From assembly GCF_000430785.1 (NCBI RefSeq), contig NZ_KE387247.1, positions 86,301 through 110,300 of the forward strand: DNA of 24,000 nucleotides, written 5' to 3'. Below, one piece after another: positions 11,561-16,507 of the stretch (its first letter is position 1; every line of letters begins with the position of its first letter). A program made the position numbers and the translations under genes. The notes beneath the pieces are model-generated. The model was not told the DNA's origin. It searched no databases and saw nothing but the letters and a program-made list of their open reading frames with translations. The stretch is from Ectobacillus panaciterrae DSM 19096 (GTDB taxonomy: Bacteria > Bacillota > Bacilli > Bacillales > Bacillaceae_G).

Positions 11561-12871
11561 GTGTTCAAAAAAGATCTCAAAAAGAGGCTATTCCCTTTTG
11601 CAGTCGTTTCTTCTATTGCTGTTGGTGGTTTAATTGGTGCTCTATCAACACCAACTGTTGAAGCACAAAATAATCACAGGAAAGTAAAAAACGTTATATT
11701 TATGATTCCTGATGGTTTTTCTGCTTCTTACGCAACAAACTATCGCTGGTATAAAGGTCGAGAATCTCTTCTGGATTCAATATTAGTCGGTATGCATCGA
11801 ACTTATTCAGCAAATAAAGAAGTAACGGATTCAGCAGCAGCTGGAACAGCGATGGCGACTGGTGTGAAAACAAACAACGGAATGATTAGCACTTCACCAG
11901 AAGGCAAAGAGTTGAAAACCATTCTTGAAGCAGCTGAAGAAGAAGGGAAAGCATCCGGATTAGTCGCGACTTTAACTATTACACATGCGACTCCTGCCGC
12001 TTTCGCTTCACATGTTGCCGCGCGTGCAAATGAAACAGATATTGCACCGCAATTGCTAAAAAATGGAGTAGATGTCATTCTTGGAGGCGGAAAGAAATAT
12101 TTTCCTGATTCGCTTTTAAATAAAGCAAAAGGGAAAGGATACCAATATGTTAGTGACCGGGAACAGTTAGCTGCCGCAAAAAAAACAGACAAGCTAATCG
12201 GTTTATTTGCTGAAAAAGGCTTAGCGCCTGAGTTGGATCGAGATACAACAAACCAACCTAGCCTAGCGGAGATGAGTGAAAAAGCCCTTGAAGTTCTTAA
12301 TAAGGATAAAGACGGTTTCTTCTTAATGATTGAAGGTAGCCAAATTGATCGGGCAGGACATGCTCATGATGCAGCATGGGCAATGAAAGATACTGAAGCA
12401 TTCGAAGCAGCGCTGGCAAAAGTTTTGGAATTCGCGAAAAAGGATAAAAATACGTTAGTTGTTGTCGCTGGTGACCATGATACGGGCGGCATGTCTGTTG
12501 GCGGTTACGGTAAATATGATGCAAATGTTGAATTGCTTCGTAATGTAGCTGCAACGGGTAACTTTATGGCAGGCAAGTTGAACGCTGGCCGCAGCAATGT
12601 AAAAGAAGTAGTTAAACAGTATGCGAACATCGACCTTACAGATGAAGAAGCTAAAAGAATCAAAGCTGTAAAAAAGCCGGATATAGCAATTAACGAAGTA
12701 ATTTCTGAACGTGCATTAGTTGGATGGACAACTTCCCAGCATACTGGTACAGATGTTCCGCTATATGCATTCGGACCTTGCTCTAACCTGTTTAGCGGTT
12801 TACACAATAACACAGATTTGCCTCAATTAATGGCACAAGCTATGAAAATCCACTTTAGCCCATCTAAATAA
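11561..12871 (+). CDS. Alkaline phosphatase (PhoA/PhoB family), secreted
   Basis: GTG start after a TAGGGGGA Shine-Dalgarno. It has a signal peptide and the catalytic motifs PDG, DSAAAGTA (active-site Ser), THATPA, EGSQIDRAGHAHD, GDHDTGG and HTGTDVP. Confidence 0.92.
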   Translation: MFKKDLKKRLFPFAVVSSIAVGGLIGALSTPTVEAQNNHRKVKNVIFMIPDGFSASYATNYRWYKGRESLLDSILVGMHRTYSANKEVTDSAAAGTAMATGVKTNNGMISTSPEGKELKTILEAAEEEGKASGLVATLTITHATPAAFASHVAARANETDIAPQLLKNGVDVILGGGKKYFPDSLLNKAKGKGYQYVSDREQLAAAKKTDKLIGLFAEKGLAPELDRDTTNQPSLAEMSEKALEVLNKDKDGFFLMIEGSQIDRAGHAHDAAWAMKDTEAFEAALAKVLEFAKKDKNTLVVVAGDHDTGGMSVGGYGKYDANVELLRNVAATGNFMAGKLNAGRSNVKEVVKQYANIDLTDEEAKRIKAVKKPDIAINEVISERALVGWTTSQHTGTDVPLYAFGPCSNLFSGLHNNTDLPQLMAQAMKIHFSPSK

Positions 12872-12897
12872 TTGAGCCAGATGGAATTTTTTGAATG

Positions 12898-12934
12898 AAA
12901 AACACTGCTGAATAACAACCAGCAGTGTTTTTCC
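12898..12934 (+). terminator. Rho-independent terminator of the alkaline phosphatase gene
   Basis: AAAAACACTGCTG (12898-12910) pairs perfectly with CAGCAGTGTTTTT (12920-12932) and is followed by a T-run. Confidence 0.85.
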
Positions 12935-12943
12935 TGTATCAAA

Positions 12944-13139
12944 CTATATAAATGGAACTAAAAAAATCGACATAAAAACTTTTCTTTTAGGGGGGAGAGA
13001 GCATCCGACTAAGCGTAGAAGCGGTCAAACCCTTTTCGTGGCCCATGCAGGGAGAGAGAGAGGGAGCGAGCGCAGTTTCCCTGTTGTTCTACGTGGCAAA
13101 CGATAGATATGTCGGAATAACAAAGTGGACTTATATATA
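12944..13139 (-). repeat. MITE-like interspersed element, copy D (diverged, ~196 bp)
   Basis: The reverse complement aligns with copies A-C, sharing ...CCCTGCATGGGCCACGAAAAGGGTTTGACCGCTTCT...GGATGCTCTC. Both arms end in ..TCGACAT / ..CCGACAT after CTATATA termini. Confidence 0.65.
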
Positions 13140-13310
13140 AGTGAATAAAAAACCGTTTATAGTGGGAAGAGATGATCCGGCGACGTGCAGAAGCGGTCAA
13201 ACCTTTGTAGTGGTTCATACAAGGGTAAACCAGAGAGAAGAAGCATACCATACTTCCTTTTGGTTGCACATAGCACATAAATGTCGAAATTATCATTCAC
13301 TCATATATAG
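13132..13310 (-). repeat. MITE-like interspersed element, copy C (~179 bp), abutting copy D
   Basis: The reverse complement is near-identical to copy B by eye. It shares the TATATATA at 13132-13139 with the end of copy D. Confidence 0.75.
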
Positions 13311-13416
13311 TTTGTTATTCAGAGAGTTGACTTCTTTAGAAACTGGAAAAAAGTTAAGTTGATCGCATTCATTTTCATTCTAGATACTGGCAGTATCGAA
13401 TTCAACTATTAGTCTA

Positions 13417-14274
13417 TTACTGTGAACGTCTGCGTCTGGAACTTCCGCGTGAGCGACGGTTAGATATTTGGTTGTCTTTGGATATAAGTAATATTAATAA
13501 GAATATAATCAAGGCTATAAGTATTCTATTAGTATTTGAGTTATTAGCCCTGACATCGCCTTGTAAACCAACAGAGTCAGCATCATTGAGCAATGCTGCA
13601 TGAGCACCTTGTAAACCAACAGAGTCAGCATCATTGAGCAATGCTGCATGAGCATCTTGTAAACCAACAGAGTCAGCATCATTGAGCAATGCTGCATGAG
13701 CATCTTGTAAACCAACAGAGTCAGCATCATTGAACAATGCTACATAAGCATCTTGTAAACCAACAGAGTCAGCATCGTTGAACAATTCTACATAATCATC
13801 TTGTAAACCAACAGAATCAGCATCGTTGGGCAATTCTACATAATCATCTTGTAAATCAACAGAGTCAGCATCGTTGAGCAATTCTACATAATCATCTTGT
13901 AAACCAACAGAGTCAGCATCGTTGAGCAATGCTGCATAATCATCTTGTAAACCAACAGAGTTAGCATTATTGAGCAATGCTGCATAATCATCTTGCAAAC
14001 TAACAGAGTTAGCATTATTGAGTAATTCTGTAAAATCACCTTGCAAACCAACAGAGTTAGCATCATTGAGTAATTCTGCAAAAGTAGCTTGCAAACCAAC
14101 AGAGTTAGCATCATTGAGTAATGTTGCAAAATCACCTTGAATACCACATAACTCTGGAAAGTGTTGTCTAAAGTATTGGCTAATACAATGAATATCATCA
14201 CTTTGATACGTATAGCCAAATTTGTTAGTAGTGTATGGCATATACTTTTGATGATGTTTTTTCCTAGAAGCCAT
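13417..14274 (-). CDS. Tandem-repeat protein with a C-terminal transmembrane anchor and an Arg-rich tail (unknown function)
   Basis: ATG at complement 14274 lies 8 nt after an AGGAG Shine-Dalgarno; the ORF-track TTG start at 14289 contains that Shine-Dalgarno. The 285-aa protein has a 46-aa N-terminal region, then 12 x 16-aa repeats (consensus D-x-x-A-L-L-N-D-A-D-S-V-G-L-Q-D), then ILIALIIFLLILLIS and RRSRGSSRRRRSQ. Confidence 0.7.
   Translation of the reverse strand: MASRKKHHQKYMPYTTNKFGYTYQSDDIHCISQYFRQHFPELCGIQGDFATLLNDANSVGLQATFAELLNDANSVGLQGDFTELLNNANSVSLQDDYAALLNNANSVGLQDDYAALLNDADSVGLQDDYVELLNDADSVDLQDDYVELPNDADSVGLQDDYVELFNDADSVGLQDAYVALFNDADSVGLQDAHAALLNDADSVGLQDAHAALLNDADSVGLQGAHAALLNDADSVGLQGDVRANNSNTNRILIALIIFLLILLISKDNQISNRRSRGSSRRRRSQ
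13561..14136 (-). repeat. 12 contiguous 48-bp in-frame tandem repeats within the CDS
   Basis: The unit is TCAGCATCATTGAGCAATGCTGCATGAGCA(C/T)CTTGTAAACCAACAGAG on the plus strand. Units at the gene's 3' end (13561-13750) are almost identical, and units toward the 5' end diverge progressively. Confidence 0.9.
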
Positions 14275-14360
14275 TTCTTCACTCCTCAATTAAACGCTTA
14301 ATAATACCTATACACATTCAATATATATAAAATTGAACAGATTGCTTGGACAGTCATCAC

Positions 14361-14423
14361 TATAGGATGAAAATTCATCCTATAAATTCATCCTATAAGG
14401 TTCCTATATAGCATTTCTATAGG
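14361..14423. promoter_or_regulatory. Cluster of five TCCTATA/TATAGGA motifs upstream of the repeat-protein gene
   Basis: TATAGGATGAA (14361-14371) is inverted relative to TTCATCCTATA (14374-14384). TTCATCCTATA recurs at 14387-14397. TTCCTATA is at 14401-14408 and CTATAGG at 14417-14423. Confidence 0.4.
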
Positions 14424-14692
14424 TGCTCTTTGGTTTTGCAGTATGAATGACAAGCTCAATTCTTCTATATGATGCAAAGAGGCAAATATCATGGACAAGT
14501 AGCAAATTACATTCTATTTAGAACAAAGAATGAGTGAAGGATTACTGGAATCTGGGTTATGTGAATTTTAATGAGTATCTAGCAGAATACGTTATACTTT
14601 TATTAAAATATAATTAGTCGATGCGTAAAAAGTGCCCGGCTTACGGACTCTTTTTGTACATGTTATATGTCAGATGCGGATTTAATACTTTT

Positions 14693-14735
14693 TTAAGAAA
14701 TGGTTTAGAGAATGTTTAGCTTTATGCGGTACGAT
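14693..14735 (+). promoter_or_regulatory. Phased-hexamer box plus -10 element (candidate response-regulator-dependent promoter), site 1
   Basis: TTAAGA (14693), TTTAGA (14704) and TTTAGC (14715) are spaced exactly 11 bp apart. TACGAT (14730-14735) starts 15 nt after the start of the third hexamer. The architecture and flanking TTTTTAAGAAATG are the same as site 2 at 17265-17307. Confidence 0.5.
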
Positions 14736-14863
14736 TGAAGCAGGATGGAACTCGGATAGAGGAGAATGTCTATGGAAGCTTTTTGGCTGACCAATGTGCG
14801 CTTGGAGACAGAGGGGTATATATGAAGACGGGTTGATTAAAAAATAGAGCCTGCAGATTGTTC

Positions 14864-14891
14864 TTGACCTGAACACGCCATTATATATGAT
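14864..14891 (+). promoter_or_regulatory. Sigma-A type promoter upstream of the histidine kinase gene
   Basis: TTGACC (14864-14869), 16-nt spacer, TATGAT (14886-14891). Confidence 0.45.
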
Positions 14892-15006
14892 GCAAACCTT
14901 TTGTAAGAACGCATTGCACTATCAATCATTCTGTAGGGTTGCAAAATTTAGAGACAACAGTTGCGGGGTTTTTATGAGATGTGAAAAAAATACATCTGTG
15001 CACACT

Positions 15007-15035
15007 AAAGAGAGTGATGAGCGCTCTCTTTTAAT
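15007..15035 (+). terminator. Terminator/attenuator-like hairpin in the kinase leader
   Basis: AAAGAGAGTG (15007-15016) pairs with CGCTCTCTTT (15022-15031) across the 5-nt loop ATGAG, including one G-U pair, followed by TTAAT. It sits 30 nt before the kinase start codon. Confidence 0.35.
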
Positions 15036-15064
15036 ACGAAAAAGAACATTAAGGATGAAAAAAT

Positions 15065-16507
15065 GTGTCGATTAAAACAAGGTTTTTGTTGTCTTATATC
15101 GCAGTTATATGTATTTCAATCATGTTGTTGTTTGCTGCCGGCTTTCTGATTCTTTTTACAATGACGGGAGATGTAAAATCCGTCCAGTATTTTTATAAGA
15201 ATTCGTATACGAATAAGCCCTTGACGGAAGCTGAAGAGAACGCGTTTCTTGATTTGAAGCTGCTGGCTAAACATACGCCGGAACAATTGCTGGACGAGAA
15301 GCAGCTGCAGGAAAAGAAAGGGACAGAAATTGTAATACGAAAAGGCAAGTCCATCGTATATGCATCTCCTTCCTTGAATAAAGAAGCATTGGCAAAATCT
15401 CTTCCTGCTTTTGAAGAGGCGAATATTAATACACGCGATACGATTCAAATGGATAACTCTTTTTTCACGTATGTGAAATTCGATTTTTATTTTTCTGATA
15501 AAGAGGAAGGAAGTATGTTTGTTTTACGCAAAGTAAGTTCTTATACGGAACTGGTCCGAAACCTATTCCCGATTCTGTTCGGCTTACTGCTGCTTTTACT
15601 TGTGATTACACTTGGTGTCGTGAACTATATCGTTTCACGCAGCGTTATCAAACCTCTCAATGTTCTGAAGCATGGAACGGAACGAATTAAGGAAGGGGAC
15701 TTGGACTTTCAGCTGCGGCCGCATTCAGGAGATGAAGTGGGACAGCTTACCCAATCGTTCGAGGATATGAGAAAGAGGTTGAAAGAATCCGTGGAAGTGC
15801 AGATTCAATACGAAGAAAACCGAAAGGAGCTTCTTTCCAACATTTCTCATGATTTGAAAACGCCCATCACTTCCATTTTAGGGTATGTAGAGGGAATACG
15901 GGACGGCGTGGCAAATACGCCGGAGAAGATAGACAAGTATTTAACGACAGTGTATACAAAAGCAAAAGACTTGGACTCGCTCATAGAGGAATTGTTTCTG
16001 TTTTCCAAGCTGGATTTGCAAAAAGTCCCTTTTGCGTTTGAAATGGTAAACCTTGTGCAATATATGCGGGACTATGTGGAAGAGCTGCAGCTCGATTTAC
16101 AGGACCAAGGAATAGAAGTGACATTGAAGCCCTCTTATCTTCATGTGATGTATGTAGAGATGGATCGTGAGAAGATAAAACGAGTGTTGTCGAATCTGAT
16201 AAATAATAGTGTAAAATATATGGATAAAGAGCATAAAAGCATAGACATCGTTTTAACCGATCGGCAACATTACGTCACTGTACAGGTGACGGATAATGGT
16301 CCGGGCATCGACGAAGCGGCGCTGCCGTATTTTTATCGTGCGGAGCGTTCACGAAGCAAGCATACGGGCGGAAGCGGTCTCGGCCTCGCGATTGCCAAAC
16401 AAATCGTTCAAGGGCACGGGGGAACAATCAGTGTCAGCAGTGAAACAGGAGCAGGGACGACCATCTTCTTTTCCTTACCGAAAGCAGAGACGGGGGATGT
16501 AAAGTGA
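15065..16507 (+). CDS. Sensor histidine kinase (two TM segments, extracytoplasmic domain, HAMP, HisKA, HATPase_c)
   Basis: GTG start. TM1 FLLSYIAVICISIMLLFAAGFLILF, TM2 LFPILFGLLLLLLVITLGVVNYIV. HAMP region (PLNVLKHGTERIKEGDL...). H-box SHDLKTPIT, N-box LINNSVKY, G-boxes DNGPGI and GGSGLGLAI. The segment between G1 and FYR (DEAALPY) is 4 residues shorter than the usual ..LP.IFERFYR. Confidence 0.9.
   Translation: MSIKTRFLLSYIAVICISIMLLFAAGFLILFTMTGDVKSVQYFYKNSYTNKPLTEAEENAFLDLKLLAKHTPEQLLDEKQLQEKKGTEIVIRKGKSIVYASPSLNKEALAKSLPAFEEANINTRDTIQMDNSFFTYVKFDFYFSDKEEGSMFVLRKVSSYTELVRNLFPILFGLLLLLLVITLGVVNYIVSRSVIKPLNVLKHGTERIKEGDLDFQLRPHSGDEVGQLTQSFEDMRKRLKESVEVQIQYEENRKELLSNISHDLKTPITSILGYVEGIRDGVANTPEKIDKYLTTVYTKAKDLDSLIEELFLFSKLDLQKVPFAFEMVNLVQYMRDYVEELQLDLQDQGIEVTLKPSYLHVMYVEMDREKIKRVLSNLINNSVKYMDKEHKSIDIVLTDRQHYVTVQVTDNGPGIDEAALPYFYRAERSRSKHTGGSGLGLAIAKQIVQGHGGTISVSSETGAGTTIFFSLPKAETGDVK

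Follow-up and report, generated by a model that had tools for sequence, protein, structure and literature searches.

A tandem-repeat protein of Ectobacillus panaciterrae with a C-terminal membrane segment and an N-terminal module common to signal-less enzymes

A stretch of 24,000 nt of the Ectobacillus panaciterrae DSM 19096 genome, referred to here as the window, contains a gene that consists for the most part of a short tandem repeat, and it raises the question of what kind of protein such a gene encodes and where in the cell the protein may act. The open reading frame lies on the minus strand, from 13417 to 14274; its translation starts with ATG, is free of stop codons and gives a protein of 285 aa (Table 1). 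An in-frame TTG at 14289 could also be considered as initiation codon; however, the presence of GAGGAG 7 nt upstream of the ATG at 14274 indicates that the latter is the start, and every paralog described below begins at a Met homologous to it. No match was found by an Rfam scan of 12800-15100, and no convincing terminator could be seen downstream of the stop codon. A homolog search with the whole protein did not retrieve any sequence, and tblastn against plasmid and phage records gave no match. The gene is intact and accessory, and its host is a soil spore-former.

Table 1. Coordinates in the window of the repeat-protein gene, its parts and its upstream elements
Feature	Position	Strand	Basis or remark
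Complete CDS	13417..14274	-	285 aa + TAA stop 13417-13419; start backed by RBS and paralog alignment
Arg/Ser-rich tail KDNQISNRRSRGSSRRRRSQ (aa 266-285)	13420..13479	-	20 aa, net +7; sequence
Hydrophobic membrane segment ILIALIIFLLILLIS (aa 251-265)	13480..13524	-	KD15 3.57; AF2 helix, pLDDT about 90
Asn/Thr-rich linker GDVRANNSNTNR (aa 239-250)	13525..13560	-	sequence
Tandem array, 12 x 48 bp = 12 x 16 aa (aa 47-238)	13561..14136	-	net charge -39
N-terminal module (aa 1-46)	14137..14274	-	alignment to 3 paralogs and few other species; AF2 pLDDT 54-69
Shine-Dalgarno GAGGAG	14282..14287	-	7 nt before ATG; strong RBS
Promoter-like box TGTCCA-N17-TATATATATT	14320..14352	-	conserved upstream of all module-bearing genes, in three taxa
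TCCTATA motif cluster	14361..14423	.	upstream of TGTCCA box

The repeat array was delimited by Tandem Repeats Finder at 13560-14146, with a period of 48, 12.2 copies, 92% matches and 0 indels. Twelve contiguous, in-frame units of 48 bp had been described in the original prediction, and their presence was confirmed; they occupy 576 of the 858 nt (67%) of the CDS. The consensus of the 16-aa unit is DDYAALLNDADSVGLQ, and the thirteenth 16-aa window, which follows the array, is unrelated (16/48 identities). The gradient of identity that had been reported along the array is also borne out, the near-identical copies being located at the 3' end of the gene: neighbouring units share 47-48 of 48 nucleotides among units 10-12, 45 among units 4-9 and 41-43 among units 1-3. 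At the protein level, positions 6-16 of the unit are nearly invariant, while positions 1-5 vary, mainly by non-synonymous changes; overall, 16 non-synonymous and 4 synonymous variant codons were counted among the units, and 15 of the 19 variable columns fall at codon positions 1-2. From the gradient it is plausible that slippage is ongoing. Moreover, the longest exact self-match at an offset of 48 nt is 78 nt, so that identical 3' units could have been under-counted in a short-read assembly and twelve is best read as a minimum number. The period multiple of 3, the near-identical 3' units and the identity gradient are features that the gene has in common with in-frame variable-number tandem-repeat (contingency) genes; the array is known here from one genome.

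The repeat part does not match any known family, as had been anticipated: no significant match was found in Pfam, NCBIfam or PDB. For the whole protein, the best Pfam match had E=0.054 and was attributed to chance or composition, as for the flavodoxin and DCD models found among such matches; the best NCBIfam match (E=0.12) was below both significance and the curated cutoffs, and the flavodoxins retrieved among PDB sequences (E>=0.009) were again compositional or due to chance. The sole match with a low E-value came from PHROGs, with the function-unknown family phrog_7029 (E=6e-6), for which no curated cutoff is available; it was read as compositional, and phrog_7029 was rejected as the family of the protein. 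EF-hand, RTX and ice-nucleation 16-mers were also compared with the unit by eye, and none of them fits. The repeats had been proposed to form an acidic rod, but this is not sustained by structure prediction: AlphaFold2, run on the whole protein together with the module alignment, gave a mean pLDDT of 48.8, with values below 50 for the repeats, and was confident only for the transmembrane (TM) helix.

A decaying or non-functional frame, or non-coding satellite DNA that is open by chance, would account for some of these features, namely the prevalence of non-synonymous over synonymous variant codons among the units; furthermore, the exact protein sequence is not present in a collection of 15 billion proteins, and the surroundings of the gene contain MITEs and gene remnants. 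We hold this explanation to be extremely improbable: the frame is open over 858 nt and is preceded by a strong ribosome-binding site and by a conserved promoter-like box, its N-terminal sequence has homologs and is under selection, positions 6-16 of the units hardly change in the protein, and the architecture is maintained in other species.

The evidence of selection comes from the N-terminal part. No family had been recognised in the original prediction, which overlooked a conserved module of 46 aa at the N-terminus, common to three paralogs and to proteins of a few other species. Comparison of the repeat protein with all six reading frames of the own genome (5.41 Mb, 189 contigs) revealed three further module genes, which match it only over residues 1-46/86, with 54-76% identity. 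In the alignment, the module of the repeat protein is 70% identical to those of the paralogs (profile E-values from 1e-32 to 2e-34), and 29 columns are invariant among the four copies; its sequence can be written as M..KK..KYMPYTTNKFGYTYxSDDIHCxSQxFxxHFPELCG. Pairwise dN/dS over the 46 module codons ranges from 0.12 to 0.70, indicating that the module is translated and constrained by purifying selection; these values, together with the strong ribosome-binding site, speak for a real coding gene.

The three paralogs carry the module on different cargoes: the first is a BNR-like propeller (476 aa), the second a metzincin with HEIGHSLGLPHD (260 aa) and the third a protein with a CAP/YkwD domain and an M23 peptidase (376 aa), whose CAP domain matches TIGR02909 'spore_YkwD' below the cutoff of the model. 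The paralog at L004 contains 8 Cys. No N-terminal hydrophobic segment (h-region) is present in any member of the module family. The small contigs bearing the paralogs have ends that join repeats elsewhere in the assembly and not one another. The module has a net charge of +3, with a basic N-terminus, and AlphaFold2 models it as a beta-hairpin with short helices, at a pLDDT that does not make the structure confident. It had no match in Pfam, NCBIfam, PDB (profile search included), PHROGs, or plasmid or phage records. Some known types of short sequence were considered and discarded: a Zn-binding site made by H29/C30/H38/C43, because these residues are not kept in the E. antri or B. cereus-group members; a cysteine-switch prodomain (PELCG compared with PRCGxPD), because the module is found also on cargo that is not a protease; and lipobox, Tat, double-glycine leader and KxYKxGKxW signals, none of which fits by eye.

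Outside the own genome the module is rare. A search of its profile against 1.84 billion representative proteins gave six matches, four of which are real: two of the own-genome paralogs, annotated from Met12, a hypothetical protein of 163 aa from E. antri (WP_124564585.1) and a protein of 234 aa labelled as B. thuringiensis. The other two are spurious repeat proteins. When 105 genomes of the family were compared, with one genome per species, the module was found in seven, namely the own genome, with four copies, two others of the same genus and four of the 71 genomes of a second genus; named Bacillus records that bear it are B. rhizoplanae and B. pseudomycoides.

The two Ectobacillus relatives (G001 and G007) encode proteins of 163-167 aa that have the architecture of the repeat protein without the 48-bp repeats. 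Their parts follow one another in the order module, acidic aromatic low-complexity stretch (EDDVFSDFMDDTFDDFFDDFSD), Asn/Thr-rich linker and C-terminal hydrophobic segment; the acidic region is rich in D and F, and the hydrophobic segment ends in ARR. In a fourth Ectobacillus genome (G002), a decayed remnant of the module, QSDNSHCNSQFCKPQFLESCNSQDN, is found at L011:544-3087, embedded in a single long open frame, with an aldose-epimerase-like part on one side and a GH32 domain that follows it; this arrangement suggests that a former module-GH32 gene was fused to its upstream neighbour. In the Bacillus species, the module is without Cys30 and shortened at its N-terminus, and it is fused to a domain of 140 aa that is present also as a stand-alone adjoining gene.

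This Bacillus cargo domain of about 140 aa (L013:4825-5256 and L013:3977-4627 in B. rhizoplanae; also L014 and L020) is modelled as a beta-sandwich with an AF2 pLDDT of 94. No Pfam model exists for the family, whose members are 60-70% identical across metagenome bins of Chloroflexi, Actinobacteria and Bacillota. A fold of the spore-appendage or coat type was considered for it and was not retained, since the Foldseek matches were all of a generic arrestin/Ig-like type, with TM <= 0.38.

Comparison with the relatives also gives a clue to the origin of the repeats. A linker that follows the module, xQ(D/G)(N/D)xA(K/R)LQN..(S/T)SLQN, is conserved among the paralogs and the Bacillus members, and in the repeat protein its position is occupied by the first unit (IQ-GDFATLLNDANSVGLQ), which aligns with it. 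Position 11 of the unit is Asn in units 1-4 (ANS rather than ADS) and position 9 is also Asn in units 3-4 (LLNNANS), a pattern that resembles the Asn-rich linker; from unit 5 on, both positions are Asp (NDADS). We infer from this one alignment that the array is probably an amplified ancestral linker, which would have grown at its 3' end, where the youngest units would be found. In that case the gene would illustrate clearly how a linker that was already present gives rise to a repeat array.

The similarity among the module genes extends to the DNA that precedes them. The upstream regions of all four copies can be aligned and contain a box, TGTCCA-N17-T(G/A)TATATATT, a leader of about 45 nt and then AGGAGTGAAGAAATG. 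Box, leader and ribosome-binding site are likewise present before the module genes in E. antri, Bacillus rhizoplanae and B. pseudomycoides, the box being TGTCCA-N17/18-T(G/A)TATATATT when all these genes are considered. Module, promoter-like box, leader and ribosome-binding site travel together and define a small family that had not been described. Apart from the four module genes, a genome-wide pattern search found the box at a single additional gene, on contig C148 (C148:1-690, minus strand, ATG at about 641). This gene encodes an M23 peptidase with cell-wall-binding-type repeats, which starts with MACPAPPFTIIQ and does not contain the module; it has the box, the leader and the 50-nt element of the module genes, and its frame runs off the end of the contig. 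The box was compared by eye with the SigA, SigE, SigK, SigG, SigH and Spo0A consensus sequences and did not clearly match any of them. By the same visual comparison, it is spaced by 19-20 nt from a TATATT -10 sequence, TGTCCAA is one base off the Spo0A box, and GTATA-N17-CATnnTA fits a forespore-type promoter in some paralogs and is not kept across species.

The TCCTATA motif cluster includes a perfect palindrome, ATAGGATGAA-AA-TTCATCCTAT, at 14363-14384, which is unique in the 5.4-Mb genome. It sits directly upstream of the TGTCCA box, at the site that is taken up in the paralogs by the 50-nt element, and is a possible candidate for an operator specific to the repeat gene.

The 50-nt element (ACTtCCGATAATgAnATGTTATGTAAACcTCACATGtATAngaTATACA, with core ATGTTATGTAAACYTCACATGWATA) is dispersed in the genome and includes the inverted repeat ATGTATA-N3-TATACAT; conservation is limited to about 50 nt. 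In the own genome, 68 copies have at most 2 mismatches to the 25-nt core and 62 have at most 1; nine copies are present in the other large Ectobacillus genome and none in 59 other genomes of the family. The copies are intergenic, often lie 90-160 nt before the starts of diverse small accessory genes, the three paralogs included, and are often near the ends of small contigs; examples are L002:968-992, L003:776-800 and L004:1366-1390, and there is none in the window. The element may act as a promoter or operator, or it may be a mobile repeat of very small size.

At the opposite end of the protein, one hydrophobic segment followed by a basic tail had been predicted, and both are confirmed. The hydrophobicity scan shows a single peak, with no second one (KD15 3.57 at residues 251-265), and the tail has a net charge of +7. 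There is no hydrophobic segment in the first 60 aa (maximum KD15 0.81), nor an N-terminal Sec signal peptide. This layout, with one C-terminal TM and no signal peptide, was likewise part of the original prediction, and it recurs in the relatives from two other Ectobacillus species. The designation of the protein as tail-anchored, instead, holds only in part: the single C-terminal TM and the lack of a signal sequence agree with it, but the charges of the TM flanks (+1 on the N side and +7 on the C side) favour an N-out/C-in orientation. Conversely, in the two Ectobacillus relatives the charges are +3/+4 before the TM and +2 after it, which favours N-in. As these values point in opposite ways, a common topology is not evident.

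In Gram-positive bacteria, many surface proteins are held by a C-terminal hydrophobic anchor followed by a basic tail, as in LPXTG sorting signals and in the 'hydrophobic tail' proteins, such as Listeria ActA. The repeat protein is similar to them in having central repeats, then a hydrophobic segment and a positive tail, but differs in lacking a signal peptide and an LPXTG/NPXTG-type motif; indeed, no sortase motif (LPXTG/NPXTG/LPNTA) is found directly before the TM, where the sequence is ...GLQGDVRANNSNTNR. This likeness, together with the positive-inside rule applied to flanks of +1 and +7, raises the alternative of a protein displayed at the surface, N-out/C-in, with a cytoplasmic Arg-rich tail; the module would then be a non-classical export signal, acting also for the enzyme paralogs, whose M23, CAP, metzincin and BNR domains, like that of the GH32 remnant, are typically extracytoplasmic. 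A C-terminal-TM protein predicted to be N-out provides a precedent (PMC3087755). Surface display is a serious alternative, but a rather doubtful one: no member of the family has an h-region, the module is basic at its N-terminus, in the relatives from E. antri and G007 the N flank is the more basic one and only 'RR' follows the TM, and no secretion genes adjoin any family member. In addition, the paralogs are rich in Cys, a residue that exported proteins of Firmicutes tend to avoid.

The other orientation corresponds to a classical tail-anchored protein on the cytoplasmic face of the vegetative membrane, with the module as a cytoplasmic interaction domain and a role unrelated to spore or surface. 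Bacterial proteins of this kind (TAMPs) have been described in Streptomyces (PMC3087755) and E. coli (PMC6794478); the repeat protein resembles them in the absence of an N-terminal signal and in the single hydrophobic segment at the extreme C-terminus, and, orientation aside, it complies with the formal definition, since it lacks a signal peptide and its only TM is located no more than 35 aa from the C-terminus (PMC3087755). The flank charges of the relatives are also in agreement with N-in. However, no sequence relation to the TAMPs exists, and two thirds of the repeat protein are tandem repeat; TAMPs are defined by N-in, and the 20-aa tail of +7 after the TM argues against that orientation, and in a classical tail anchor it would be hard to move across the membrane. 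Moreover, M23, CAP, metzincin and BNR cargoes make little sense in the vegetative cytoplasm. We consider this explanation unlikely. The same topology ambiguity is noted for a Streptomyces example in the work on bacterial C-terminal-TM proteins (PMC3087755).

The explanation that we favour, and to which we assign about even chances, is that of a C-terminally membrane-anchored accessory protein in which the module would serve as a tag for addressing or docking, the TM as a membrane anchor and the repeats as an acidic spacer of adjustable length. Its main weakness is the topology. The pattern of fusions indicates that the module does one job that is independent of the cargo, for which targeting or docking are the natural candidates; it is on this pattern that the role of address tag is proposed. 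The module would bring the repeat protein, the metzincin, the CAP+M23 peptidase and the BNR propeller to one site, the hydrophobic C-terminus would fix the repeat protein in a membrane and the repeat block would act as a strongly acidic spacer, whose length could change in steps of 16 aa by unequal recombination or slippage.

The site would preferably be the spore envelope, which is assembled from the mother-cell cytoplasm, rather than the vegetative cell surface. Domains such as M23, CAP/YkwD, metzincin, BNR and GH32 normally act outside the cytoplasm, and the absence of a signal from enzymes of this type is a usual trait of the coat and exosporium proteins that the mother cell produces. The spore envelope as destination is thus favoured by the extracytoplasmic type of the cargo, by the lack of signal peptides in the family and by the spore-forming hosts. 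A location on the spore side is also suggested by the sub-cutoff match to TIGR02909 and by the eight Cys of the L004 paralog, all hosts being spore-forming Bacillaceae; in Firmicutes, exported proteins tend to be poor in Cys, and the Cys-rich paralogs fit the spore envelope better than secretion. Delivery from the mother cell, which we favour, would not need any export step and would be analogous to that mediated by the N-terminal targeting domains of the exosporium.

An N-terminal exosporium-targeting domain is found in the BclA/BclB-type proteins of the Bacillus cereus group, and this is the functional analogy that we prefer, as in both cases unrelated, signal-less proteins of one bacterial family bear a short N-terminal module. 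No similarity in sequence to that domain emerged, however: the scan of the protein against NCBIfam, which is expected to hold an exosporium-leader model, gave only chance flavodoxin matches.

A different role for the repeats is suggested by the opposite charges of module (+3) and array (-39): the protein may be a scaffold, loosely like the scaffoldin/dockerin system, in which the twelve acidic units dock the basic aromatic modules of the three enzyme paralogs. Expanded repeats are indeed found only in the genome that has three module-tagged enzymes, and where a species has only one module gene, its acidic region is short. This correlation, however, comes from a single genome, units of 16 aa are too small for folded domains, AF2 does not give them any confident structure, and the supposed scaffold itself bears the module; we regard such a scaffold as very unlikely. 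The combined view, that the module cassette is a portable Bacillaceae address by which signal-less hydrolases reach the spore envelope or leave the cell, and the repeat protein their membrane receptor or scaffold, with twelve docking units, seems to us quite unlikely.

In itself, the product of the repeat gene is a known kind of object, an in-frame tandem-repeat, membrane-anchored, lineage-specific protein, and alone it would be one more of its class; it is the common N-terminal module that lifts it above that. The association of a module and a promoter-like cassette with signal-less hydrolases appears to be undescribed, and in these genes the module takes the place of the signal peptide on enzymes for which export is normally necessary (M23, CAP, metzincin, BNR). 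If the module is a targeting signal, it would represent a new tag of small size with which proteins could be directed to the spore or cell surface, and the repeat protein would be a natural handle for finding the partner of the module.

The genomic setting agrees with the accessory status attributed to the gene, since the corresponding sites in two sister species (G007 and G004) do not contain it. These were located by a histidine kinase, encoded on the other strand 800 nt upstream of the repeat gene, which has orthologs in both. In G007, the kinase ortholog is preceded by an intact amidohydrolase of 414 aa (L034:4745-5989), of which the window retains a remnant corresponding to the first 17 codons (MEAFWLTNVRLETEGYI, 14772-14825, plus strand); in G004, the neighbourhood of the kinase ortholog is different again. 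The module genes of E. antri and G007 are each flanked by an ssbB-like gene on one side and a yccA-like gene on the other; in the own genome, 20 kb separate these two genes, and yccA has a GNAT gene and a MITE-like copy next to it. Two MITE-like copies, at 12944-13310, flank the repeat gene, and no secretion genes are found next to any family member.

Proteins with another type of start were observed in the same genome. On contig C16, 3 kb from the CAP+M23 paralog, L023:12794-15304 encodes a protein of 836 aa with YadA-head repeats and a Peptidase_G2 intramolecular-chaperone domain; it has no signal peptide and begins with a Cys-rich stretch followed by ...GGIQVPG. A protein encoded on contig C41, near 12430, begins with ...CCCSCCHSNPCCC...GGIQVPPPP. 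As judged from these two starts, GGIQVP may be another common N-terminal motif, of the spore-surface type.
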